DNA of 64,000 bases. Source: an uncultured Planctomycetia bacterium. GTDB lineage: Bacteria > Omnitrophota > Gorgyraeia > Pluralincolimonadales > Pluralincolimonadaceae. The translations under genes and the position numbers were made by a program. This document shows, piece by piece, positions 6,822-58,265 of this stretch; position 1 is the stretch's first letter, and every line of letters begins with the position of its first letter. The notes beneath the pieces are model-generated. The model made no database searches. It saw nothing but the letters and a program-made list of their open reading frames with translations, and was not told the DNA's origin. The DNA lies in NCBI GenBank assembly GCA_964650515.1, contig CAZYUB010000009.1, positions 25,093-89,092 on the forward strand, read 5' to 3'.

Positions 6822-7175
6822 ATGAAAAGGAGCGGTTTCACCCTCATTGAGATCGTCATCGCGCTGGCCATCCTGGCTGTCGGCCTCGTGGGGATCCTTT
6901 CACTCTTTCCCATCGGTTTTGATTCCGCGAGAAGGTCCGTCAGCGCGACGCAGGCGACCATATTCGCGAACGAACATCTCGACGAGCTGAAGAACAGCGG
7001 CTTTCCCGCGCTCGGCTCCACCTCCGGCACATTCGCAGACCCCGCATATTCATGGACCCAGACGATATCGACGACCACGGTAAACGACCTCAGGCAGGTC
7101 ATCTGCACCGTAAGCTGGGGCCAGGGCAACAGGACATTCCAGAGGGCATTCACTACAAATGTCGCTAACAGGTAG
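6822..7175 (+). CDS. Minor pseudopilin, GspI-like size (117 aa)
   Basis: Class III signal peptide MKRSG|FTLIEIVIAL with Glu+5; small size typical of GspI. Confidence 0.65.
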   Translation: MKRSGFTLIEIVIALAILAVGLVGILSLFPIGFDSARRSVSATQATIFANEHLDELKNSGFPALGSTSGTFADPAYSWTQTISTTTVNDLRQVICTVSWGQGNRTFQRAFTTNVANR

Positions 7176-7914
7176 AAGGCGCATAACCGGCAGGGCCGGG
7201 CTCACTCTCGTCGAGATACTCGTCGTCGCGGTGATATTCACTATCCTGGTCCTCGCGCTTTTTACCGTCTTCAGGGGCGCGCTTGATTCATGGCGCAAGT
7301 CCGAGACGCTCCTCGACATGTACCAGAACACGAGGTTTACTTTCGAGCTTATGCGCAAGGAGATACCGGCATCGGTGCTCTACCAGGGGTCCAACAACAC
7401 CGCCTACTGGACGAAGTTCGAGGGCAACGACAGCGGGAGCGCCGCGATAATAAAGACAAATTCGGTAGGCGACGAACTTTTCTTCGTCGCGCCGGTCGCC
7501 GGCAACCCCGGGGACCAGGACCTCTGCGAGGTCGGGTATTGGTTGCGCAACGATAACTGCCTCATGAGACATTTCGAATATTACGACGGCAGCACGGTGC
7601 CGGTGGCCTACGATTTCGCCGTCAATAACGCCGGCACGACGTCGGCCGATGTAATCGCGCGCAACGTATCGGCGATCAGTTTTGTTTACTATTACAGGAA
7701 CGCCGTGGGCGCGGTGCCGTCGGCAACGGCAACGAGCTGGGACTCAAGCACCGACACGCTGACCGGCGGTAACCAGAATATTGATTCCTCCGGCAACGCG
7801 CTCATACCGGACGGTTTGCCCGAAGCGGTAGAGGTCTCCCTGACCGTCCAGAGCAGGGACGGCCTTCAGCAGAAGACGTTCACGGATTTCATCCTAATTC
7901 CGGGTGCAAGATGA
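7159..7914 (+). CDS. Minor pseudopilin, GspJ/GspH-like (251 aa)
   Basis: Prepilin-type N-terminus …GRAG|LTLVEILVVAVIFTIL with Glu+5, preceded by a basic leader. Confidence 0.6.
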   Translation: MSLTGRRRITGRAGLTLVEILVVAVIFTILVLALFTVFRGALDSWRKSETLLDMYQNTRFTFELMRKEIPASVLYQGSNNTAYWTKFEGNDSGSAAIIKTNSVGDELFFVAPVAGNPGDQDLCEVGYWLRNDNCLMRHFEYYDGSTVPVAYDFAVNNAGTTSADVIARNVSAISFVYYYRNAVGAVPSATATSWDSSTDTLTGGNQNIDSSGNALIPDGLPEAVEVSLTVQSRDGLQQKTFTDFILIPGAR

Positions 7915-15619: not shown

Positions 15620-18220
15620 ATGAACAAGAGAAGAAAGAAGGGCGTCGCGCTTATCATTACGGTAGGGATCCTCGCGCTGCTGGCCATGATCGCTACCTCT
15701 TTCGCCTACAACATGATGTTCGACCTAAAGGGCGCCGCAAATTATGTATTGAAGATGAAGGCGAAGAACGCGGCTGAGGCGGGAATAAATATGTCTATCG
15801 CCTACCTGCGGCAGCTTGCCGCGAGCGACTTCAACGCGGTGCCTACAAGCGCGTGCGATTGGGCATATACAAGCGCCACGCAGCCGTCGTTTGACGGGCG
15901 TGACGGGGCGGCAGGCAATTCAACGAGCGGACTGCTCGGAGATGTCGGCAGGGGCCATATCGCCGTATGCTCATTGAGGGTGACCGACACAAATTCGCAG
16001 ATAAACATCAACGACACAAACCCGAACCTGAATGTCATCCTGGGAAACCTCGGGACCATATTGTCCATACCGGGATGGGCCCAGGCAAATGCGGACAGCA
16101 TGATATCCGGGAGGCCTGCTGGCGGTTATGCGACCAAAGAAGGGATAGTCGAATTTATGCCGGGTGCCGACCTGACGGCAAAGAGGGTTAATTACGCCCT
16201 TATAAGGGATTTCGTGACCGCCAACAGCTATATCGACCAGTACAGCGAGGACGCGACGGCGCCGATGCCTACCAGCAACAACTACCAAAGCAAGTCGCCG
16301 GTAAACATCAATACCGCAAGGAGAGAGGTGTTGCGCGCGGTCCTGCGCCCTCTTGTCAGCACTGACGCGAATGCGTCGCAGGTAGCCGGCGCGATCATTA
16401 CGGCGAGGACTATGGTATCGCCGTTCCGGAGCTGGAACGGGGCCGCGTCGGCGGGCGGCTTTAATTCCTTTATCGACAATATCAACCCTACAATATTGAC
16501 CAATCCCCAGAAAGACGCCATCAAGAACAACTTCAATCCCAATAAGGTCAAGCAGGGCGCGTATACTACGGATTTCTGTTTCCATCCGGGAGGTTTCTAC
16601 GAGATCATCTCGACCGGCACAGTCGGAATAGATAATAATTCGGACGGGGCGGTCGAGGATGCAAAAGCAAGGCAGGAGCTTACCGCTATCGCAAGGATAT
16701 ACAGTATCCTTAATTATACGGCAAAAGAGCAGTTCCGCGGCGAGGACGCGAACTACAACGGCATCCTGGACGCGGGCGAGGACGCGAATGGGAATGGTGC
16801 GATCGATAGCCCTACGTTCCAGAACGTGACATGGATGAACTCATGCCCGGTGGTCTCGACGGAAGGCGACGGCGTGAAATACCCTGCGGTTGGAGGCTAC
16901 ACGACCGTGCCTAATTCGCTGAAGCTAGGAGTGTGGGATAATTTCGACGAGGATAATTATGACACGAACGGCGACGGGAAGGCCGAGACGGGTTTCAGCC
17001 TGTGGGCATGGTCGAATGAATCCGGCGCCGGGTCTAAGATGGAATTCAAGGAGTGCGATGGTGACGGAGATTGGGAGATGTATGGAGAAGGCGTCTATTT
17101 TGGTTCTCCGTGGATATTCCCGAAGTTCGTGTTAAGGTCTGATTGGGTGTTCGGGAATAGGTTCTCTTTGAGGGGTTTTACGTGCCCGATACCAGCTGGT
17201 GACGGCACCGAGGATGGCGGGCGTATACAATTTACCAATTCAAACGGCAGCACAACATATGGGCAGTTTATGCTGCGGAGATGGGGATTCGACTATTGGT
17301 CCGGCGTCAGAGATATAACAAGGCCCCCGACCGTGGCGCAGCCCATAGGTACAGTGAAATGGGATGACCAGGCGACGGCAGATTCCCACGCAAAAAAGGG
17401 CAAGGATTTTTCAGATACAACCGTATATTTGAGATTAAACGGCAGCAATCACCGCGTATACAGGTTGGGAGACCTGTACGGATATACGGACCAATTTACG
17501 GACCATTACAATTTTTGTACCGATCCCTCATCAGTCCCCGTCACATTTTACGAAGAGGGTATCGATAGGTATCACGGTGTCATGCCGGAGATATATGCCC
17601 TCAAACTTGCGGTAAGCCCAGACCTATCGCCGAACTATAGGGCATGGATTGCAGTAGGCAATATTAATATTGCCGAGCTTTATGATTATAATGCAGGGAC
17701 GTATTCCGGGTTTACTCCATGTGTTGCGCCGTCCTCGAATTTCATGGCCGTACCGCTGCATGCAAGCTCTCAACCTTCTTATGACAGGTACGGATGCGAT
17801 AAGAGCCCGTGTTCGAGTAACACGTGGAGTATCAATACGTGGTATTTGACGCTGTTTTTGAATCACAGCGATGGTTTCTGGGAAGAAATAAGGGTCCTGT
17901 CAAATACCGGTTTTTATCAATCACCTGTTTTTGCGGGATCCTTATTTAATGGCGGGAATCCTGTAGTATGGGGCACCGGTTCATGGACACTGAGTATCCC
18001 CTCGACAGCCGACCCGGCAAAAGAAACATGCATCGTGCAGTTCAACACCGGAAGCGGATTGACTGCGGCGACGTTTAACGGCGCTATAGGCGGGGTCTCA
18101 AATTCAATTATATACAGGATTAATTTGGCATCTACCGATACCGATTGCAGTGAGACGCCGGTCTTTGAGGATTTGACCATAACTTACTTGCCGAGGGCAA
18201 GTGTTGTCTACCAGAGGTGA
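15620..18220 (+). CDS. Giant GspK-like pseudopilin paralog 3 (~866 aa) with tandem EF-hand-like loops
   Basis: N-terminus KKG|VALIITVGILALLAMIATSFA. ~75% protein identity to paralog 2 over the first ~150 aa. DANYNGILDAGE-DANGNGAID loops. Motifs SLKLGVWDNFDEDNYD and WMNSCP. The ATG at 15620 has a GAGG RBS; the upstream ATG at 15530 overlaps the -10 box and is rejected. Confidence 0.7.
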   Translation: MNKRRKKGVALIITVGILALLAMIATSFAYNMMFDLKGAANYVLKMKAKNAAEAGINMSIAYLRQLAASDFNAVPTSACDWAYTSATQPSFDGRDGAAGNSTSGLLGDVGRGHIAVCSLRVTDTNSQININDTNPNLNVILGNLGTILSIPGWAQANADSMISGRPAGGYATKEGIVEFMPGADLTAKRVNYALIRDFVTANSYIDQYSEDATAPMPTSNNYQSKSPVNINTARREVLRAVLRPLVSTDANASQVAGAIITARTMVSPFRSWNGAASAGGFNSFIDNINPTILTNPQKDAIKNNFNPNKVKQGAYTTDFCFHPGGFYEIISTGTVGIDNNSDGAVEDAKARQELTAIARIYSILNYTAKEQFRGEDANYNGILDAGEDANGNGAIDSPTFQNVTWMNSCPVVSTEGDGVKYPAVGGYTTVPNSLKLGVWDNFDEDNYDTNGDGKAETGFSLWAWSNESGAGSKMEFKECDGDGDWEMYGEGVYFGSPWIFPKFVLRSDWVFGNRFSLRGFTCPIPAGDGTEDGGRIQFTNSNGSTTYGQFMLRRWGFDYWSGVRDITRPPTVAQPIGTVKWDDQATADSHAKKGKDFSDTTVYLRLNGSNHRVYRLGDLYGYTDQFTDHYNFCTDPSSVPVTFYEEGIDRYHGVMPEIYALKLAVSPDLSPNYRAWIAVGNINIAELYDYNAGTYSGFTPCVAPSSNFMAVPLHASSQPSYDRYGCDKSPCSSNTWSINTWYLTLFLNHSDGFWEEIRVLSNTGFYQSPVFAGSLFNGGNPVVWGTGSWTLSIPSTADPAKETCIVQFNTGSGLTAATFNGAIGGVSNSIIYRINLASTDTDCSETPVFEDLTITYLPRASVVYQR

Positions 18221-19425
18221 AGTGGGCCATGAGTAAGGGTATTATATATATTGCAATCATATTGTTGGCTACGATTTTTTCTGCTATAAGGTTTGCGCAT
18301 GCCGATGACATTATCCTGAAGGAAAGCGGTAGGGTAATTGTCGGGAAGGTCCTTGAAGAGAAGGACGGCATGCTTACGATTAAGCTGTCAAAAGGCGGTT
18401 CTTGTATAATGCCGAGAGATTGGGTAAATAGGATAATAAAGAAGGACCTATCCGACGAAGAACTTTTTACCAAGGGTGATATATATCAGCAAAAATTGAA
18501 GGCCATAAATCCTAAATCAGCAGAAGACCATCTCGCACTTGCCGATTGGTGTTTTAATAACGGTACCCCGGAGAACGGTATGCTCTTTGCGGCGGAGTCA
18601 CATCTAAATATTGCTATGCAACTGGACCCAGGTTCTGCCAAACGCGCTCCTGAAGCACTACTTAGGGTAAGGGAGAAGACCGCCGAAAAGGTTTTCTCAA
18701 AAGCTGAGCTGGAATACGAAAACGGGGAGTATATAAGATCGGAGCAGGAAGCTTTGTCTATAATCTTCGCCTACGGTGAAACGAAATACGCGTCAAAAGC
18801 CAAAGGCCTGCTGACAAAAATATGGGGAAAAGACAGGGTTTTGGTTCTTTTGGAGCCAAAAGAGGATCCATTACCCGGTGTTGCTTATTCAAGGGAAGAC
18901 CTCGAGTCGGTTCTTTATAGTCTTAGTAATGACGAGCAAAAAGAATTGTATTTTTTAAAGTGTATAGATAAAGCTAAGGATTATGTGCAGAGGAGCCAGG
19001 AAGTCCCGGCTAACAGAAAGGCTAATTATTACAGGATCGCCATAGACTGCTACAGGAACGCGTTGTCGAGTGAAAAGTCGGAAGTCAGGGCTGTTGCTGA
19101 TTCAAATATTCAGGATCTTCTCAGGAAATATTTTGCGGACCTTTCCGCGCCTTACAATGATTACAGCTTTTCGTTGATTTCAAATCTTATGTTGATGATC
19201 AATGACGAGAAACTCATCCAGGACATAAGCGCGCAATACTCGAAGATGGGCGACGACCTGCTTAAGAAAGCCAGGCGGCTCAAGCAACCTGATAAGGGCA
19301 AAGAGGCCGCCGCAGCATATTTCAGTTATTCTATAGCGAATAATTTCTCCAAAGACGGCAAGATAAGGGAGAATGCGATAGAAAACATGATCGAATGCCA
19401 GCGCCTGGAGAGAGCACGCAAGTAG
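18217..19425 (+). CDS. Secreted partner protein A' (paralog of 14273-15466; identical last 12 aa IECQRLERARK), AT-rich codon usage
   Basis: 402 aa with a signal/TM N-terminus. ~35-40% identical to A overall, but the last ~40 nt and the downstream promoter are ~95% identical at DNA level. Confidence 0.55.
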   Translation: MKWAMSKGIIYIAIILLATIFSAIRFAHADDIILKESGRVIVGKVLEEKDGMLTIKLSKGGSCIMPRDWVNRIIKKDLSDEELFTKGDIYQQKLKAINPKSAEDHLALADWCFNNGTPENGMLFAAESHLNIAMQLDPGSAKRAPEALLRVREKTAEKVFSKAELEYENGEYIRSEQEALSIIFAYGETKYASKAKGLLTKIWGKDRVLVLLEPKEDPLPGVAYSREDLESVLYSLSNDEQKELYFLKCIDKAKDYVQRSQEVPANRKANYYRIAIDCYRNALSSEKSEVRAVADSNIQDLLRKYFADLSAPYNDYSFSLISNLMLMINDEKLIQDISAQYSKMGDDLLKKARRLKQPDKGKEAAAAYFSYSIANNFSKDGKIRENAIENMIECQRLERARK

Positions 19426-19459
19426 CGGTGTCAAAATCTTGCTTTAGAAAAAGAAATAA

Positions 19460-19488
19460 TTGACAACCGGGTGCTAATTTTATAGAAT
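19460..19488 (+). promoter_or_regulatory. Duplicated sigma70-like promoter TTGACA-N17-TAGAAT upstream of the gspL-like gene
   Basis: TTGACA at 19460-19465, 17 nt spacer, TAGAAT at 19483-19488. The predicted transcription start is only ~6-8 nt before the ATG at 19502. Confidence 0.45.
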
Positions 19489-19501
19489 ATACGCAAGCCA
19501 T

Positions 19502-21100
19502 ATGGGAAAACGTGCTCTTGGAATCGATATAGGCGCAGGCTCAGTCAAGCTCGTAGAGCTTGAAAAGACATCCGAAGGCGTGCAACTCCTCCGGGCAAAG
19601 TTTTTTGACCTCACACAGCACCCAGACCAGGAGAAACGCGAGGCCCTCGTAAGGGAGGGGCTCGAGGGGCTCCTCAAGACAGAAAAGATAAGAAGCGGCA
19701 ATACCGCAATATCCCTCTCAGGCCAGTCGGTCTTCATAAGGTTCCTGAAACTCCCCAAGATACAAAAAGGCAAAGTAGACAAGATAATAAAGTACGAGGC
19801 CCAGCAGCAGGTCCCGTTCCCCCTCGATAAGATAACCTGGGACCACCAGATATTCCACAGCGGCGCCGGCCCGGAAGAGGACGTGCTGTTTGTCGCCGCC
19901 AAGAAGGAGCTCGTCGAGGCCACGCTGCTGAATTTCTCAAGGACAGGCCTTGATGTAGAATCCGTCGACGTAAGCCCTCTCTCGCTGCTCAACGCGATCA
20001 CCTATAATGAGCCGCTCGCGAAAGGCGTAATAATAGATATAGGCGCGAAGGCGACAAACCTGATAGTCCTCGACGCGAAGGGCTTCTGGGTACGCTCGGT
20101 GCTCATCGCCGGCGATGAGATGACGCACGCGATAGCTTCTAAGATGAACATCCCGTTCGACAAGGCTGAAGAGCTCAAGCGCAAGGAGGGCATGGTCGTC
20201 CCGTCGGACAGTTTGGTGCCCTCGAACATAAGCTCCACGGGCCAGGAACTCGTAAGTATCCTCAATACCGTCGTATCCGACATGGTCTCGTCTATAATAC
20301 AATCCCTCGAATTCTATAAGTCGAAGCACGGCAGGGATATGGTCTTCGGCGAGGTCATACTTTCCGGCGGCGGCTCCAAGCTGAAGGGAATAGAGGATTA
20401 CCTCGCGAAAGGCCTCGGGATGCAGATAAGGCGCGCCAACCTCGGCCAGAAGATAAAATGCCCTTCGAACCTCAGGGTGGACATAGATTTCCAGTCGAGG
20501 TTCGGCGCCGCGATAGGCCTCGGGCTGCGCCTGCTGCAGAGATGCCCGACGAATATCGACCTGCTTCCGGCCGAAAGGAAAGAGGACAGGGATTTCAGGA
20601 AGGAAAGGATTTGGATAATCGCCGCGGGGGTCATGCTGTCGCTTATACCTTTCACTATAGCCATGAACATATGGTTCCAGTCCGGCGCTTTAAGGAAACA
20701 GATATTATTCCTCGATGATATATTGGCCCAGTATGACGACGTGAAAGCGAAGATAGCGACGCTTAAGGATGACATCAAGAAGGGCGAGCAGAGGATAAAA
20801 CCGCTTGAGAACGTTGCCGTCAGGAGGTCCCTGCTGCTGGAGGCGCTGCTTGAGGTTGAGAAGCTGCTGCCGAAAGAGACGTGGCTTACCTCGTTAAGCG
20901 AAGAGAAGGATTGGATCTCCATAGAAGGCAGGACCTCTGAGAACCTCCTTACGATAACGGAGTTCAAGAACAAGCTCTCGGCATCCCCGTTATTCGAATC
21001 GGTAGAGATAATCTACGCGAGCCTCCCGAAGGATTCAGAGGAAGGCATGGGCCAGTTGAGGGACTTTTCTATTAAGTTCAAGCTGAAGGCAGGGAAATAA
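19502..21100 (+). CDS. GspL-like assembly protein = PilM (actin-like ATPase fold) fused to PilN (TM + periplasmic)
   Basis: N-terminal GIDIGAGSVKLVEL and …ILSGGGSKLKGIEDYL… are PilM motifs. After a TM segment (IWIIAAGVMLSLIPFTIAM) there is a coiled-coil/PilN-like periplasmic domain. Confidence 0.8.
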   Translation: MGKRALGIDIGAGSVKLVELEKTSEGVQLLRAKFFDLTQHPDQEKREALVREGLEGLLKTEKIRSGNTAISLSGQSVFIRFLKLPKIQKGKVDKIIKYEAQQQVPFPLDKITWDHQIFHSGAGPEEDVLFVAAKKELVEATLLNFSRTGLDVESVDVSPLSLLNAITYNEPLAKGVIIDIGAKATNLIVLDAKGFWVRSVLIAGDEMTHAIASKMNIPFDKAEELKRKEGMVVPSDSLVPSNISSTGQELVSILNTVVSDMVSSIIQSLEFYKSKHGRDMVFGEVILSGGGSKLKGIEDYLAKGLGMQIRRANLGQKIKCPSNLRVDIDFQSRFGAAIGLGLRLLQRCPTNIDLLPAERKEDRDFRKERIWIIAAGVMLSLIPFTIAMNIWFQSGALRKQILFLDDILAQYDDVKAKIATLKDDIKKGEQRIKPLENVAVRRSLLLEALLEVEKLLPKETWLTSLSEEKDWISIEGRTSENLLTITEFKNKLSASPLFESVEIIYASLPKDSEEGMGQLRDFSIKFKLKAGK

Positions 21101-21102
21101 AT

Positions 21103-21867
21103 ATGGCAAAGGGCATTAAGCCGCATGTGATGACGAAGCTTGTGCTGGGGCTCGTATTCCTGGGGTCCCTTTGCGTCGCCATATTTGTCGGCTACGACAG
21201 GTCTTCCTTAGAGAAGTCCATACAGGACAAGACAGGAGAGCTCGAAAGCTATGAGGACCAGGGGCTTTCCGTCCTTAACAGGGAGCGGCTGAAGCTTGAA
21301 AAACAGCTTAAATCCCTGAAAGACGTGAATGACCAGCTGAATACCGGCCTTTTCACCAGCCCGAAGGCCAGGATGCCTAAGGAAGCCGGCGACGCCCTGA
21401 AGTTCAAGGAAGAGCTTTACAGGGTCCAGAACAAGATAAAGGAAGAAGGGGTGCCGATAGATTTCCAGTTCCCGTTCTGGCTCGGTTTCGAAAGATACGA
21501 GCATGATATTCCCGTTTCTGCCGACCTTCCCGTCAGGGCCAAGCAGCTCGAGATAATAAAAGAGATCATGGACCTGATGCTTCAGGCGAAGGTCCCCGAG
21601 GTATCGTCCGTAGAATTCCTCGAGTCGAAGAACATTACCTATGACGGCGGCAAGGAGCCGATGTTCAGGGAGTTCCCTGTGAGGATATCGTTTAAGTGCA
21701 AGAACGATAACCTTCTCGGTTTCCTGTATAAGGTCTATGTTTCCGGGATACCTTTCAGGGTAGACGTACTCAAGATCAAGGTACTTAACGAAGAGACCGG
21801 CGAAAAGGGCGAACTTAAAGTGGAAGCCGTGATAGTGGCTGCCATACAGCAGGCGGAAAAGATATGA
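21103..21867 (+). CDS. PilO/GspM-like bitopic inner-membrane assembly protein
   Basis: Single N-terminal TM (LVLGLVFLGSLCVAIFVGY), coiled coil, ~250 aa, positioned after the PilMN fusion. Confidence 0.55.
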   Translation: MAKGIKPHVMTKLVLGLVFLGSLCVAIFVGYDRSSLEKSIQDKTGELESYEDQGLSVLNRERLKLEKQLKSLKDVNDQLNTGLFTSPKARMPKEAGDALKFKEELYRVQNKIKEEGVPIDFQFPFWLGFERYEHDIPVSADLPVRAKQLEIIKEIMDLMLQAKVPEVSSVEFLESKNITYDGGKEPMFREFPVRISFKCKNDNLLGFLYKVYVSGIPFRVDVLKIKVLNEETGEKGELKVEAVIVAAIQQAEKI

Positions 21868-22535
21868 AAGGCATATATAAGATCGCCGCGATAGCGCTGT
21901 TCGTATTATGGTTCATATTGCTATGGTCGGCGCCGTCTTTATTCACGCCGAAGGATTTCTCCGTCCCGACGGGCGAAGATAATATCGTTAAGCCAGACGA
22001 TACAGCAGTTGACGCGTCTGACGTTTATTCAGCCCTTATAGAAAGCGTTAAATCGCCGTTTGCCGCTGCGAGATACCAGCAGCTCCTCGACAGGAACCTG
22101 TTCATGAGGCCGGAAGCGCCCCCGGTCGTTTTCACGCCGGACAAGCTTAAGGTCGTGTCTATCGGGGCCACGAACCTGCCCTTCATGTATACCGGTTTCA
22201 TACAGAAGCAGGACGGCACGATGATAGGCCAGATTAACTGGTCGGGGAAGACATATTTCGCTAAGAAAGGCGAAAAATTCAAGGATTATAAGGTTATCGA
22301 GATAAATTCGAAACAGATAAGGGCCGAGAACAAGGACGGGCAGCTTACAATGGAGTTCAAGAAGCCCGTAAAGAGCAAGGAACTGATCGGAAAGCTCTAC
22401 AGCTCTATGGACGATAAGACCTTTGAAGTGAAAAAGGGAGATGAGATAAACGGTTATAAAGTTCTTGACATTAAGGCCGATAGTGTGATACTATACGGCC
22501 AGGATCAAGAGTGGGTCATTAAAAAGGGGAGATGA
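21864..22535 (+). CDS. PilP/GspC-like protein (TM anchor + two beta-sandwich HR-like modules)
   Basis: N-terminal TM; …KLKVVSIGATNLP…GQINWSGKTYFAKKGEKFKDYKVIEINSKQIRAENKDGQLTMEF resembles the PilP/GspC HR fold; the position in the operon fits. Confidence 0.45.
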   Translation: MKGIYKIAAIALFVLWFILLWSAPSLFTPKDFSVPTGEDNIVKPDDTAVDASDVYSALIESVKSPFAAARYQQLLDRNLFMRPEAPPVVFTPDKLKVVSIGATNLPFMYTGFIQKQDGTMIGQINWSGKTYFAKKGEKFKDYKVIEINSKQIRAENKDGQLTMEFKKPVKSKELIGKLYSSMDDKTFEVKKGDEINGYKVLDIKADSVILYGQDQEWVIKKGR

Positions 22536-22540
22536 TATAA

Positions 22541-23659
22541 ATGGATATTACCAATGGGGTTAAAAGAACGGTTCTGCCGTTTTTTTGTATCTTTCTGACT
22601 TTCAATTTATTCTTTATTATCTCATTGTATTATTTTGCCGGAGGCGAAGCCCACGCTGCCACGGGGAGTGGTTATTCTAATGATTCCCTGGAGGCAAAGA
22701 TTATCGCCGAAGACCTGGCAAAGCAGAAAAAAGTAGAAAAAAAATCCCTCGTTTCAGACCTCTTTAAGCAGGCAAAGGCCTCATATGACGCGAAAGATTA
22801 CGAGACCTCCCAGAAGATATTCGAAAGAGTCGTCCAATTAGACCCGAAGAACAAGCAGGCCTCCCATTATATAGAATTATGCAAGGAAGGCATGGCTAAG
22901 GATGTCCCCGCGTCTATATCGGGCACCCTTATGAAGAGGGGTAAAGCGAATTACGCGAACAAGCAGTATGCGGCCGCGATAGCGGACTTTGAGACGGCGT
23001 TGGCAGCGAACCCGAGCGACTCGGAGGCCAGGTTGTGGCTTGAGAAGGCGCGCAGGGGGGAGGAGCTGTACTCAAGGGAGAAATCCACAAAAGAAGAACG
23101 TAAAGATATAGTAAACGACAGGAAGGTCCTGAAGGAAGAGAAGGACACTGCGGAGCAGGCGGCCCTGCGCGATGTCGACAAGGGTTGGCTGCCCCCGGCC
23201 GCTCCGGTTAAGGAAGAGTTACAGGTCGAGGAGGTCATATCGGAATCCGAGAGGGCCGAACAGGAAGCCAAGAAGGCGCTTATCGACAAGATGCGCAGCG
23301 TAATGGTCCCCGCGATCTCGGTCACTGACGCGGATATCCAGGACCTGATACGCCAGCTCATGGAGATGACCGGCGTCACGATAGTCGTGGATGAAAGGGA
23401 GCTTGCGGCCCTTACGAAAGACGCTCCCATAAAGATATCATTGAGCACCGCTACCCCGATGCCGTTGCTGGACGTGCTCGATATAGCGTTCAAGACGACG
23501 CAGTTGGGTTATAAGGTAGAGCCGAATTACGTATACGTAACGAGCAAGCGCATGAGGGACATTGAAGACCTCGTGACAAGGACATACAAGCTTAAATACC
23601 CGGAGCGCAAGACGAGGGAAGTCAAACTGAAGGAATTTGAGGCCAAAGAGGCGGAATAA
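22541..23659 (+). CDS. Membrane-anchored TPR-repeat protein with C-terminal secretin N0/STN-like domain
   Basis: N-terminal TM, TPR-like helical repeats, and a charged coiled-coil linker. C-terminal …VPAISVTDADIQDLIRQLMEMTGVTIVVDE…PLLDVLDIAFKTTQLGYKVEPNYVYVTS matches the N0/STN fold pattern found at PilQ/GspD N-termini. Confidence 0.5.
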   Translation: MDITNGVKRTVLPFFCIFLTFNLFFIISLYYFAGGEAHAATGSGYSNDSLEAKIIAEDLAKQKKVEKKSLVSDLFKQAKASYDAKDYETSQKIFERVVQLDPKNKQASHYIELCKEGMAKDVPASISGTLMKRGKANYANKQYAAAIADFETALAANPSDSEARLWLEKARRGEELYSREKSTKEERKDIVNDRKVLKEEKDTAEQAALRDVDKGWLPPAAPVKEELQVEEVISESERAEQEAKKALIDKMRSVMVPAISVTDADIQDLIRQLMEMTGVTIVVDERELAALTKDAPIKISLSTATPMPLLDVLDIAFKTTQLGYKVEPNYVYVTSKRMRDIEDLVTRTYKLKYPERKTREVKLKEFEAKEAE

Positions 23660-23661
23660 AC

Positions 23662-24777
23662 ATGGGAAAAAATCTCTGTCTTTTCGCGCTGGCGTCCCTT
23701 CTCATACTCCCCCGCATGGTGTCCGCAGAGGACATCAATGTCGCGAATTACCTGAAGGACAGCCTTCCTCCGCAGGAAGGCAGGAAGATAACGTATAACC
23801 AGGCATCGAAGCTCCTGACCGTCACAGACACCAAGTCGAACCATAACCTGATAAAAAACCTTATCAAGCAGTTCGAGATAGGCCCGAAACAGGTCATGAT
23901 CGAGACGAGGTTCGTGGAAGTCGACGTTACCGACCTCATGGAAATCGGTATTGAATGGGACTTCTACAAGCAGGGGCATCCGAGCGGCAAGGGTTTCAGG
24001 GGCATGCGCTGGGGTGATGCTACTTATGGCGCCGATTACCAGGGTGTCCACTGGAATAATGACCTTGAATCCACGTTCCCTATAACCGGGAATTTTGCCG
24101 GCCAGTTAGCGCTCTATAAAGTGCTTGAATCAGGCGATTATATAGTATCGAACCTCAGGGCCTTGGCGGAACAGGGTAAAGTGAACCTGCTGTCGTCCCC
24201 GAAGATCACGACGGTAGCCGGCCAGATGGCGAATATCCAGGTAGTCAGGACCCAGCCGTATGTTTCGGACTTTACGCTTGAGAATATCGGTACGGCGGAA
24301 GACCCTATATGGAGCTATAAGTTGACCCTCGCGGAGAAGCCGATAGGCATATTCCTCGAGGCCACTCCTTACGTTACCGAGGGTTCGAACACGATAACGC
24401 TTGACCTCCATCCTGAAGTCAGCATTATGCGCGACCAGGTAAGGATCTCGACACTTACGACAAGCGGCGAGACCGGCGAGCTCGGCAACGTTACGGCTGA
24501 CGATTCGGTGCCGCTCATTCCGGAAGACCTCGGATGGCCCGTGGTGGACGTCAGGACTACGCAGACCAGCGTCGTCGTCGACAGCGGACAGACGATAGTC
24601 CTCGGCGGTATGATCAAGGATGAAGAGCAGGTCATCAAGAGGAAGGTCCCGGTATTGGGGGATATACCGCTCCTGGGAAAGGCCTTCCAGTATGATTACA
24701 AAGAACAGCGCAAGAAGAACCTCCTTATATTCATCACGGCGAGTATCATCAATGCCAGAGGGGAGGTAATAAGGTGA
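23662..24777 (+). CDS. gspD: Short secretin 1 (signal peptide + one N-ring domain + secretin domain; lacks N0)
   Basis: …VMIETRFVEVDVTDL… (Secretin_N); …LRALAEQGKVNLLSSPKITTVAGQMANIQVV…TSVVVDSGQTIVLGGMI…KVPVLGDIPLLGKAF…KNLLIFITASII is the secretin C-domain signature. Only 371 aa. Confidence 0.85.
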   Translation: MGKNLCLFALASLLILPRMVSAEDINVANYLKDSLPPQEGRKITYNQASKLLTVTDTKSNHNLIKNLIKQFEIGPKQVMIETRFVEVDVTDLMEIGIEWDFYKQGHPSGKGFRGMRWGDATYGADYQGVHWNNDLESTFPITGNFAGQLALYKVLESGDYIVSNLRALAEQGKVNLLSSPKITTVAGQMANIQVVRTQPYVSDFTLENIGTAEDPIWSYKLTLAEKPIGIFLEATPYVTEGSNTITLDLHPEVSIMRDQVRISTLTTSGETGELGNVTADDSVPLIPEDLGWPVVDVRTTQTSVVVDSGQTIVLGGMIKDEEQVIKRKVPVLGDIPLLGKAFQYDYKEQRKKNLLIFITASIINARGEVIR

Positions 24778-25895
24778 AAAATATGATAAGAGCGTTCTTA
24801 TATACACTGGTAATATCTGTGATAGCCGTGACGTCAGCTTGTATCCCGTTGTGCTATGCGCAGGAAGTAGGCGAGGCGGCTGCCGAGACATCCGTGTCGG
24901 CTGCGGAAGCATCTACGATAAAGGAATACCTGCAGCAGGCGCTTCCTGATAATCCCGAGAGGAAGATAGTCCTGGACGAGGTAACGGGCGTGCTTACGGT
25001 TACGGATACGCCGAGCAACCAGGCGCTGGCAAAGGACCTCATAATGCTTTGGGACACGGGCCCGAGCCAGGTAAAGATCCAGGCGAGATTTGTCGAGATA
25101 GAGATGACGGACGTCGAGGAACTCGGCGTTGAGTGGTGGTGGGCAAGGGAGGACAGGCATTCGGAAAAGAACGGCCGTTTTAGCAATATGGGCGTGAACA
25201 TGTTCTCACCGTCGATAAGTGAAAATGCCGACGATGCCGCGATATTCGGTATGGCCAACGAAACATCAGGCCTTGGCCTTAAGCTGGGCAGGTTCACCCA
25301 GGCCGGCAGCGTCATACAGGTATACTTGAAGGCGCTGCAGGAAGAGGGGAAGGCGAACCTGTTGTCGTCGCCTACGGTAACGACCCTTTCAGGGCAGATG
25401 GCGAACATACAGCTGGCAAATATAGTCCCCTACGCGTCGGATTTCACGAGGACGAATATAGGCAGCCCGGAGTTCCCGGTAATGGTCGAGGTCTATAAGG
25501 TGGCCGAGAAGGTCACCGGGATAATGCTCGAGGTCACTCCTACGGTCGCCGGCGACAGCCAGGTGGTCACGATGGATATACATCCCGAGGTAAGCGTTCT
25601 TGTGGACCAGCTTCCGATAACGGCTTCTACCGAGTTCCCGGACGGCCTAGGATACCCGGTCATAGACACGAGGACGGCGCAGACATCGGTAGTAATAAAG
25701 AGCGGCGAGACGGTCGTGGTCGGAGGCCTTATCAGGGAAGACGAGAATGTGACGAAGAAGAAGGTCCCGTTCCTCGGCGATGTCCCGCTGGTCGGCAACC
25801 TTTTCAAGACGCACCATACGAACAGCGTAAAGAAGAATCTTGTGATATTCCTCACGGCGACGGTACTTAACTCAAGAGGAGAGCCGGTGCTATGA
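24774..25895 (+). CDS. gspD: Short secretin 2 (tandem paralog; 373 aa)
   Basis: …VKIQARFVEIEMTDV…; …LKALQEEGKANLLSSPTVTTLSGQMANIQL…TSVVIKSGETVVVGGLI…KVPFLGDVPLVGNLF…KNLVIFLTATVL. Start overlaps the stop of secretin 1 by 4 nt. Confidence 0.85.
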   Translation: MKNMIRAFLYTLVISVIAVTSACIPLCYAQEVGEAAAETSVSAAEASTIKEYLQQALPDNPERKIVLDEVTGVLTVTDTPSNQALAKDLIMLWDTGPSQVKIQARFVEIEMTDVEELGVEWWWAREDRHSEKNGRFSNMGVNMFSPSISENADDAAIFGMANETSGLGLKLGRFTQAGSVIQVYLKALQEEGKANLLSSPTVTTLSGQMANIQLANIVPYASDFTRTNIGSPEFPVMVEVYKVAEKVTGIMLEVTPTVAGDSQVVTMDIHPEVSVLVDQLPITASTEFPDGLGYPVIDTRTAQTSVVIKSGETVVVGGLIREDENVTKKKVPFLGDVPLVGNLFKTHHTNSVKKNLVIFLTATVLNSRGEPVL

Positions 25896-26215
25896 AACGC
25901 AAGCTTATAGCCATGTCGGTGGTATTGGCCGCGGCTGTTGCCGCTTCGACGGTATTCGCGCAGGTCATAACGAAAACAAAATCCTCGGCCGGCAAACAGA
26001 AGGACATTGTACTTACGACGGCTGACATGAAGGACTCCTATAAGGTCGTCGGGATCGTGTCGGCCCGCGGTGGAGAAGTAAATCTGGACGGTTTGAATGC
26101 AAAATTGAAGGATGCGGCCAGGGACCTGGGAGCCGATTGCGTCATAGGCATCAATTACTTCAACTATAGCGGCTACGTCTATGCTTATGGCACGGCAATA
26201 AAGCTCAAGGAATAG
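25892..26215 (+). CDS. Small secreted protein (107 aa), weak UPF0145/YbjQ-like similarity; last gene of the secretion operon
   Basis: Signal peptide MKRKLIAMSVVLAAAVAASTVFAQ. …LGADCVIGINYFNYSGYVYAYGTAIKL loosely resembles the YbjQ family (…GANAVIGVDIDYE…GTAVKV). Confidence 0.35.
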   Translation: MKRKLIAMSVVLAAAVAASTVFAQVITKTKSSAGKQKDIVLTTADMKDSYKVVGIVSARGGEVNLDGLNAKLKDAARDLGADCVIGINYFNYSGYVYAYGTAIKLKE

Positions 26216-58188: not shown

Positions 58189-58265
58189 GGCGGCGTAGCT
58201 CAGATGGTTAGAGCGAGCGGCTCATACCCGCTATGTCATCCGTTCAATTCGGATCGCCGCCACCA
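58189..58265 (+). tRNA. tRNA with anticodon CAT (elongator Met or lysidine-modified Ile2), CCA encoded
   Basis: Hand-folded cloverleaf: 7 bp acceptor GGCGGCG/CGCCGCC, D stem GCTC/GAGC, anticodon stem AGCGG/CCGCT with loop CTCATAC, T stem ATCCG/CGGAT with TTCAATT loop, discriminator A, CCA. The G1-C72 pair argues against an initiator. Confidence 0.85.

Follow-up and report, generated by a model that had tools for sequence, protein, structure and literature searches.

An AT-rich patch in a type IV filament locus

Why do the distal part of one gene and nearly the whole of the next differ so strongly in base composition from the genes around them? This question is raised by a locus in a 64,000-nt stretch of DNA from an uncultured Omnitrophota bacterium (contig CAZYUB010000009.1), in the following called the window. 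A Pfam scan of the products of its open reading frames (ORFs) identified a type II secretion/type IV pilus-like cluster containing three giant GspK/PilX-like paralogues (K1, K2 and K3), of which K2 and K3 are each followed by a partner gene, A and A' respectively. The two genes concerned are K3 (15530..18220, plus strand), recognized as the third minor pseudopilin paralogue by a PilX_N match and by its paralogy to K2, and A' (18217..19425, plus strand), coding for a presumably secreted protein with a signal peptide. We consider it likely that the AT-rich island in these two genes reflects an exchangeable specificity cassette of this Omnitrophota filament locus, with the C-terminal head of K3 as its first half and A' as its second.

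Overall GC content of the window is 55.3%, and that of 17100-19200, the region for which a first-pass annotation had proposed an AT-rich island, is 46.1%. Only 0.97% of all 2101-bp sliding windows are as low, all of them at the same place, so that the island is confirmed. The minimum lies at 17391-19491 (44.9%), and the next independent minimum at 20871-22971 (48.2%). The four 60-mers quoted earlier in support of the island proved exact on recount (18241-18300, 30.0%; 18901-18960, 31.7%; 17401-17460, 38.3%; 14341-14400, 56.7%), though the low ones are picked local minima: 35 consecutive 60-mers across the region range from 30 to 60% GC with a mean of ~46%.

To describe the patch at the codon level, GC content was calculated for first, second and third codon positions (GC1, GC2 and GC3). 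Followed in frame along K3, GC3 falls from 0.65-0.77 (15620-17000) to 0.43-0.57 (17060-18200); in A' it stays at 0.38-0.55 up to ~19100 and then returns to 0.62-0.63. The core of the island can thus be placed at 17050..19110 (plus strand), with an in-frame GC3 of 0.38-0.57 throughout against 0.65-0.77 on either side. With a GC3 of 0.501, A' is the lowest of 44 credible genes (mean 0.713, standard deviation (sd) 0.059, z = -4.4). GC1/GC2/GC3 are 0.467/0.422/0.531 at 16800-19380, compared with 0.506/0.422/0.669 in the paralogous stretch of module 2 (K2 + A) and 0.553/0.387/0.732 in the remaining genes of the window. Equal-sized codon windows in other genes have a GC3 of 0.731 (sd 0.031); the patch is ~6.5 sd lower, and none of the others falls below 0.650, their minimum. 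Synonymous choice in the patch differs from that in other genes for AAT (0.70 vs 0.30), TTT (0.59 vs 0.18), CAA (0.43 vs 0.11) and GGT (0.30 vs 0.08). The composition drop therefore sits mainly at third codon positions, and as GC2 equals that of the paralogue, amino acid composition is not its cause. In this respect the earlier proposal, that codon choice and not just the amino acids differs, was correct.

Replacement of the K3 head and its partner between relatives

The locus was compared with about ten independent related loci from NCBI metagenome-assembled genomes (MAGs), JGI, ENA and Logan, all of them metagenome assemblies; the nearest relatives are Omnitrophota MAGs. Gene order is conserved in all of these loci, from gspF/G through pilMN and the secretins to polA. 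A single module of K gene plus partner is present in most, and this is of A' type in L001/2, L005, L006, L007 and L016 and of A type in L009, L017 and L020. L010 and L019 also carry one module, with a further type of partner. Two modules in tandem were found in the window, L004/8/12, L013 and L018.

In the case of L013, core genes are 96-100% identical to those of the window at the amino acid (aa) level, with a synonymous divergence (dS) of 0.23-0.41. K2 and A showed core-like values (94-95% aa identity, dS 0.30-0.41), indicating that module 2 (11769..15466, plus strand), which is near-normal in composition, has been inherited vertically among these relatives and can be used as an internal control. 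In slot 3, the partners of the two genomes are only 42% identical in aa sequence, the L013 copy representing a third class, A''. Along K3, the comparison to L013 drops from 90-100% aa identity (proportion of synonymous differences (pS) 0.2-0.6) to 20-60% at ~16760-16800, and pS is saturated from there through 19425. In pilMN, 100% aa identity is resumed, with a pS of 0.07-0.19 and ~95% identity in DNA. Maximum chi-square breakpoints lie at 16799, where nucleotide (nt) identity falls from 88.6% to 50.0% (chi-square 434), and at 19380, where it rises from 52.2% to 94.8%. The first of these divides K3 into its conserved N-terminal two-thirds (15620..16799, plus strand, GC3 0.65-0.77), comprising the pseudopilin helix and a GspK-like domain and representing the putative 5' recombination anchor, and a variable C-terminal head of ~470 aa (16800..18220, plus strand), predicted to be a beta-sandwich.

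Similar patterns could be detected in other pairs. The pilMN genes of L001 and L018 are 98% identical in DNA (dS 0.07), and L001 has one module (A') where L018 has two (A + A''), which indicates that gain, loss and replacement of modules occur very rapidly in evolutionary terms. Compared with L001, the window cassette is a mosaic: 17881-18400 and 18951-19379 are at background divergence (86-90% nt identity), and the blocks at 17051-17880 (76%) and 18401-18950 (68%) are saturated. Divergence of the K3 head from L005 is mosaic as well. In the head block 17051-17880, L004 is closer to L007 (80%) than to the window (68%); in pilMN the order is reversed (82% to L007, 88% to the window). Within A', GC3 is lowest (0.43) in the block 18401-18950, and this block stands equally far from every other A' allele (65-72% nt identity). 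As judged from block-wise identity matrices and dS of single genes, the genealogy of the cassette is incongruent with that of the flanking genes.

Where an allele has been inherited vertically, its dS is core-like. For A'' in L013 and L018, dS is 0.56 and the ratio of nonsynonymous to synonymous divergence (omega) is 0.10; for A' in L007 and L016, dS is 0.22. Omega of such pairs is about 0.1-0.17. Core-like dS together with low omega indicates that the excess divergence at this slot is due to allele replacement, and not to hypermutation or loss of function. Altogether the sequence comparisons show that the K3 head and A' (16800-19380, ~2.6 kb) form a unit that is exchanged as a block between conserved anchors, is under purifying selection and has a codon usage of its own. 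Regarding the first-pass annotation, its suggestion that head and partner had been replaced is borne out by the L013 comparison, with flanks at 89% and 95% DNA identity against 50-52% inside, but its term 'recent' is not demonstrated for the window genome: the lineage in which replacement took place is not assignable, because A' of the window differs from every relative found (best 80% aa).

Junctions at the borders of the cassette

The 3' recombination anchor at 19380..19620 (plus strand) consists of the last 45 nt of the partner gene, a 76-nt spacer and the first ~120 nt of the pilM-pilN fusion gene. The latter (19502..21100, plus strand, Pfam PilM_2 and PilN, GC3 0.71) is the first conserved gene 3' of the cassette, and its product is 96-98% identical in aa sequence to those of relatives. 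The junction is nearly invariant in the window, L001, L013 and L004; core genes of these relatives differ from those of the window by a dS of 0.23-0.72 (0.43-0.72 for L004). The invariance of 19426-19620 reflects either a strongly constrained regulatory element or a flank homogenised by repeated recombination. Within the spacer, a sigma-70-like site, TTGACA-17-TAGAAT, matches 11 of 12 positions at 19460-19488.

A second copy of the junction, with the 3' end of A and a spacer containing the same -35 box, follows module 2 at 15425..15527 (plus strand). Here 15425-15510 is ~95% identical to 19385-19470 over ~85 nt, compared with ~70% in the coding DNA upstream. The promoter-like site of this copy, upstream of K3 at 15499-15527, again matches 11 of 12 positions, with TATACT as -10 box at 15522-15527. 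Because of this site, K3 probably starts at the ATG at 15620 rather than at 15530, giving a protein of 865 aa; its orthologues of 861-876 aa are alignable from 15620. It is plausible that the promoter-bearing junction serves as crossover site both for cassette exchange and for the stacking or loss of modules. The 'homogenised conserved junctions' that had been noted around the patch are thus real at its 3' end (~85 nt, ~95%), but the longer repeats between modules 2 and 3 are only 72-74% identical over 200-300 nt. Gene conversion between these modules was ruled out, as their shared DNA is only 71-77% identical and only the ~85-nt junction reaches ~95%. Among short dips of the region, that at the junction near 15425-15620 reaches the lowest GC content (38-40% in 200-bp windows).

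On the 5' side, the breakpoint directly follows a conserved Asp/Asn/Gly-rich motif, GEDANYNGILDAGEDANGNG (16745-16800), which is reminiscent of calcium-binding loops. The next conserved motif, LKLGxWDNFDED, is common to all three K paralogues. Similarity in DNA, among paralogues as well as among alleles, ends at the WDNFDED motif (~16900-16956).

The K3 head and the partner protein

K3 scores 26.1 bits on Pfam PilX_N (cut-off 25.5) and 22.7 bits on T2SSK (PF03934), which is below the cut-off of 24.2; its orthologues are annotated by NCBI as GspK. The gene is located downstream of gspG, gspI and gspJ, in the same operon as the genes of the E/F ATPase-platform and the secretins, and this order is kept in all relatives. 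A helix-hairpin-helix-like stretch matches ComEA in a PDB sequence search (8dfk, E = 4.6e-4). The AlphaFold2 (AF2) model (predicted local distance difference test (pLDDT) 76) shows a long N-terminal helix (residues 36-99), a mixed domain up to ~residue 400 and a beta-rich part, with the appearance of a beta-sandwich, at residues 480-896. In Foldseek, the best matches of the head were calreticulin, galectin-like and legume-lectin folds, all of them weak (E ~1e-3 to 1e-2, prob 0.94-1.0, target-normalised template modelling (TM) score 0.38-0.44). A GspK entry was absent among the 50 matches listed for the whole chain, a search dominated by the C-terminal head. Matches to phage baseplate or tail proteins appeared in Foldseek only at prob <0.3, and sequence homology of the locus to tail fibres was not found. 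The model, which is of moderate confidence, and these weak matches hint at a lectin-like fold of the K3 head. By analogy with known tip proteins the head may be located at the tip of the filament, where it would bind a ligand exposed by host or prey cells.

In the case of A', the NCBI protein (P0001, 398 aa) begins at the ATG at 18229 and not at the GTG at 18217. Read from this ATG, A' does not overlap the K3 stop codon. The AF2 model (pLDDT 78) consists of a small beta-barrel and is all-helical after residue 80. Foldseek related the former to YgdR-like small barrels (prob 1.0, TM 0.6-0.7) and the helical part to BamD (prob 0.96) and 14-3-3 proteins (prob 0.6-0.8), the helical matches being weak (E >0.03). 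Designed TPR proteins were found in a PDB profile search at E = 0.08-0.1, too weak to use. With moderate confidence, A' can be modelled as a secreted protein composed of a small beta-barrel and a TPR/14-3-3/BamD-like helical solenoid. Its role would be that of a cognate chaperone or adaptor of the K3 head.

Neither A nor A' has a Pfam match. At E <= 1e-30, the full-length family comprises ~10 clusters (50% identity) among 1.84 billion representatives. A further ~500 proteins share only the N-terminal ~200 residues, i.e. the small beta-barrel and the first helical repeats, indicating that this N-terminal part is a wider-spread, unannotated module. Pairwise identity among the classes A, A', A'' and the L010 type is ~37-47% throughout. 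This partner family is undescribed, and the intragenic head of a giant tip pseudopilin as the exchanged part is likewise new, in Omnitrophota.

A model of cassette exchange and its relation to known systems

A possible mechanism is as follows. Related genomes would exchange the cassette (~16800-19380) by homologous recombination, with one crossover in the conserved N-terminal two-thirds of the K gene and the other in the near-invariant, promoter-bearing junction of partner 3' end, spacer and pilMN 5' end. In this way the cassette would have evolved apart from the core genome, as part of a pool of accessory alleles with more AT at synonymous positions, and because of that history it would stand out in GC3 and codon usage even though the protein pair is functional and under purifying selection. 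By analogy with GspK, K-like proteins may cap the filament, with the lectin-like head as exposed binding surface. The partner, as a cognate periplasmic chaperone or adaptor, would necessarily be swapped along with the head. Alternative heads would change the cell surface that is bound, and tandem modules would give two specificities. A bolder version, which we regard as rather doubtful, is that these Omnitrophota nanobacteria possess a two-slot, recombination-driven switch of host or prey recognition, with head and partner classes circulating as an AT-rich pool and modules that can be stacked or lost, as a cellular counterpart of the exchange of tail fibres and their chaperones.

Omnitrophota are uncultured and mostly ultra-small, and they are thought to live attached to other cells or to prey on them. 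Type-4 pili are near-universal in this phylum and have been proposed to mediate attachment to host cells (PMC10066038). The cassette would be a concrete candidate for a determinant of partner range, and the class of head and partner could be used as a sequence marker to correlate with co-occurring hosts in metagenomes. The case also shows that a recombination cassette with a border inside a gene can be located by a modest intragenic dip in GC3. As a compositional island the patch is unremarkable; the cassette system revealed by it is a useful starting point for studying how an uncultured phylum recognizes its hosts.

Allelic cassette exchange at surface-filament loci is already known in kind. 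In Pseudomonas aeruginosa, pilin-accessory gene cassettes may be horizontally acquired (PMC11841053). The 'pilin island' of this species (groups I-V pilA + tfpO/W/X/Y/Z) is similar to the present locus in two ways: a gene for a variable filament subunit is followed by its cognate accessory gene, and discrete allele classes occupy one chromosomal slot, here A, A' and A'', each with its own K head. The differences are threefold. Firstly, the subunit in our case is a giant GspK/PilX-like tip pseudopilin and not the major pilin. Secondly, the 5' crossover would be intragenic, so that only the C-terminal head is exchanged, and two modules can be in tandem. Thirdly, the partner is predicted to be a soluble, secreted helical-repeat protein, unlike the TfpO/W glycosyltransferases and the TfpX/Y/Z membrane proteins. 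Homology of the partner to the TfpO/W/X/Y/Z families was not detected by Pfam, and the analogy is functional only.

Phage tail fibres are exchanged in a modular fashion, by intragenic recombination: the N-terminal anchor is conserved, the C-terminal binding domain is hypervariable, and the gene of a cognate chaperone (tfa-type) downstream is transferred along with it. The present cassette shares the N-terminal anchor, the variable C-terminal head, the downstream partner and the mosaics. In contrast to the tail-fibre cassettes, it belongs to a chromosomal secretion/pilus locus and is syntenic between gspJ and pilMN/polA in all relatives. Regarding tip complexes, GspK is located at the tip in known type II secretion systems, and K3 resembles GspK and PilX/PilY1 components in its PilX_N helix, its weak T2SSK signal and its position after G, I and J. 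Unlike classical GspK, K3 is ~2.5 times the size (~865 aa), has an extra beta-sandwich head of ~470 aa and is one of three paralogues per locus. Compared with PilY1-type complexes, the locus is without a PilY1-like protein and has the TPR-like partner instead. Finally, the cassette has the deviant composition, the atypical codon usage and the patchy or incongruent distribution among close relatives of a classical genomic island, yet its allelic replacement would proceed by homologous recombination at conserved flanks. No integrase, mobility gene, tRNA target or flanking direct repeat was found at the cassette, the only tRNA of the window being at 58189.

Donor, accessory pool or drift in place

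Low GC3 at this slot is not private to the window genome, as partners across the clade show values of 0.45-0.58 against 0.64-0.70 in core genes. In detail, partner and core GC3 are 0.50 and 0.70 for A' of the window, 0.45 and 0.69-0.70 for A'' of L013 and L018, 0.58 and 0.70 for A' of L001, and 0.54 and 0.69 for the partners of L010 and L019. A' of L004 and L012 has a GC3 of 0.51 and 0.50, respectively (core 0.64-0.66), and A' of L005 one of 0.54. Partners of A type are within 0.02-0.05 of the core. In L013, the GC3 step (0.68 to 0.55 to 0.45 at 16760-16820) coincides with the recombination breakpoint, and in the window AT-richness peaks in the very block that differs most from all relatives. 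Both observations favour a separate, AT-richer ancestry of the cassette pool, from which we infer that the AT-richness comes from an accessory pool rather than from decay in place. An origin in such a pool is indirectly deduced, because no donor was found.

Several observations weigh against an AT-richer pool or, more generally, against cassette exchange as the explanation. Neither a donor nor a near-identical allele was found among ~5.8 billion proteins, the best non-self matches having 80% (A') and 87% (K3) aa identity, and genome and metagenome scans returned no closer allele. The unusual preferences of the host for ATA (Ile) and AGG (Arg) are kept in the patch. The A' alleles of L007 and L016 (GC3 0.64, core 0.68-0.69) and of L006 (0.67, adjacent genes 0.65-0.74) are nearly at host level. 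K1 and the neighbouring beta-helix gene, which resemble a second cassette described below, are hardly AT-shifted (GC3 0.65), so that variability alone does not predict AT-richness. Furthermore, in the blocks of common ancestry with L001, GC-to-AT changes outnumber AT-to-GC changes on the window branch (26 against 13) and are outnumbered by them on the L001 branch (13 against 23; Fisher p = 0.011 between branches, on small counts and with the closer outgroup L005). Parsimony polarisation with the distant outgroups L004 and L007 gave 31:11 and 32:24 (p = 0.14), an underpowered comparison. These polarised changes suggest continuing AT drift in place rather than passive amelioration. The proposed function of head and partner relies on models of moderate confidence (pLDDT 76-78) and on weak Foldseek E-values, and any single contig may be a strain chimera joined at conserved junctions.

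A further claim of the first-pass annotation is touched by these results. Import from a lower-GC donor could not be demonstrated, since the search for the closest relatives of the patch revealed no donor lineage, the ATA and AGG preferences are those of the host and the slot is AT-shifted in the whole clade. The polarised changes, which suggest that the window copy still gains AT, contrary to amelioration, likewise argue against a simple recent import that is now being ameliorated.

The strongest alternative to an AT-richer pool is AT drift in place, a serious rival though in our view an unlikely one. If the K3 head and A', as the second of two modules, were redundant or weakly expressed, the upkeep of GC3 by selection or biased conversion would be relaxed and the universal GC-to-AT mutation bias would take over; swapping would still be real but not the cause of the composition. 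Such drift would account for the polarised changes relative to single-module L001 and for the retained codon preferences. It also fits the differences between window and L001 in block 17881-18400, where the window has AT at 24 positions and GC at 5. Partner-minus-core GC3 is shifted most strongly at slot 3 of two-module genomes (-0.14 to -0.25), compared with -0.11 in L001 and -0.04 to -0.05 in L007 and L016. However, the single-module loci L010 and L019 also show -0.14 to -0.15. In A'', GC3 is equal in L013 and L018 after a dS of 0.56, and its omega of 0.10 shows no relaxation at the protein level. Drift likewise leaves aside that the GC3 step of L013 falls on a breakpoint and that divergence and AT-richness peak in the same block, and an onset in mid-gene is hard to explain via expression level. 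Were drift in place the true cause, the locus would be a clean example of locally relaxed constraint on synonymous sites in a duplicated module.

An assembly artefact, i.e. a contig that is a chimera of co-occurring strains joined at conserved junctions, is very improbable. All sequences are from metagenomes, and the breakpoints are at conserved sequence, where assemblers would be expected to switch strains. Yet the same architecture and low GC3 at the slot are seen in independent assemblies from all four sources, and L004, L008 and L012 are the same haplotype from separate assemblies. Even a chimera would show that alternative AT-rich cassettes coexist.

If a diversity-generating retroelement or a local mutator acted on the region, such targeted hypermutation would yield both variability and AT skew, an explanation to which we give hardly any credence. 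Such retroelements are common in small-celled uncultured lineages, and the variable region of K3 is a C-terminal, ligand-binding-like domain as in their targets. However, dS is core-like where the same allele has been inherited, which also rules out a locally raised mutation rate. The differences extend over 2.6 kb and two genes and include indels, unlike adenine-specific changes in a tract of ~100 nt. In the 64 kb, no template/variable repeat pair involving 16800-19400 was found beyond paralogue similarity (a reverse transcriptase was not specifically searched for), and no inverted repeats; a diversity-generating retroelement or shufflon was ruled out on this ground. Finally, that head and partner merely need residues with AT-rich codons (Lys, Asn, Ile, Phe, Tyr) would fit the somewhat lower GC1 of the patch, but is refuted as main cause, and practically discounted by us, by the unchanged GC2 and the synonymous nature of the shift.

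Other genes of the cluster

Apart from the K and partner genes, the cluster comprises two GspE-type ATPases with MshEN domains, GspF, a GspG-like major and GspI-like and GspJ-like minor pseudopilins, the PilM-PilN fusion, two small genes, a TPR/N0 protein and two secretins. All ORFs at 7000-26000 belong to it. A phage tail-fibre locus, as could be suggested by giant ORFs that are all on the plus strand, was ruled out by this Pfam GspE/F/G/I/J/K-PilMN-secretin cluster. In module 2, K2 (11769-14264, plus strand, GC3 0.69) scores 24.3 bits on T2SSK, just above the cut-off, and is followed by A (14273-15466, plus strand, GC3 0.67). Over the full length, aa identity of K2 and K3 is 48%, the N-terminal 450 residues being better conserved (~65%) than the last third (~35%); for A and A' the value is 43%.

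Upstream, K1 (7911-10871) codes for a giant K-like protein with a PA14 domain and is followed by the gene of a beta-helix protein (10771-11766). Together (7911-11766) they resemble a second swapped cassette. Compared with L013 and L012, K1 is 64% and the beta-helix protein 54-55% identical in aa sequence, with saturated pS, and the upstream GspI and GspJ are 91-97% identical. GC3 is only mildly lowered in this pair, to 0.65 overall; the final third of K1 has 0.52-0.60. Taken at its longest, the ORF of the beta-helix gene begins within K1, with 100 nt in common (10771-10871). As its orthologues have only 264-299 aa, the true start is probably near 10876.

Deeper but far shorter GC dips than the island were seen at 15300-15600 and 22200-22900. 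The latter (39-43.5% GC in 200-bp windows) runs from the last part of the gene at 21864-22535 into the TPR/N0 gene, at the end that codes for the signal peptide. L001 and L004 have kept this stretch, with aa identities of 97-99% for the TPR/N0 protein and 88-95% for the protein encoded upstream, indicating that this dip is not tied to variability or transfer. For the small gene at 21103-21867, the local Pfam scan gave no match, and orthologues have a precomputed match to PF28028 (Amuc_1100, a pilus-associated outer-membrane family of Akkermansia). This match suggests a filament cluster of a kind common to phyla of the Planctomycetota-Verrucomicrobiota-Chlamydiota (PVC) group.

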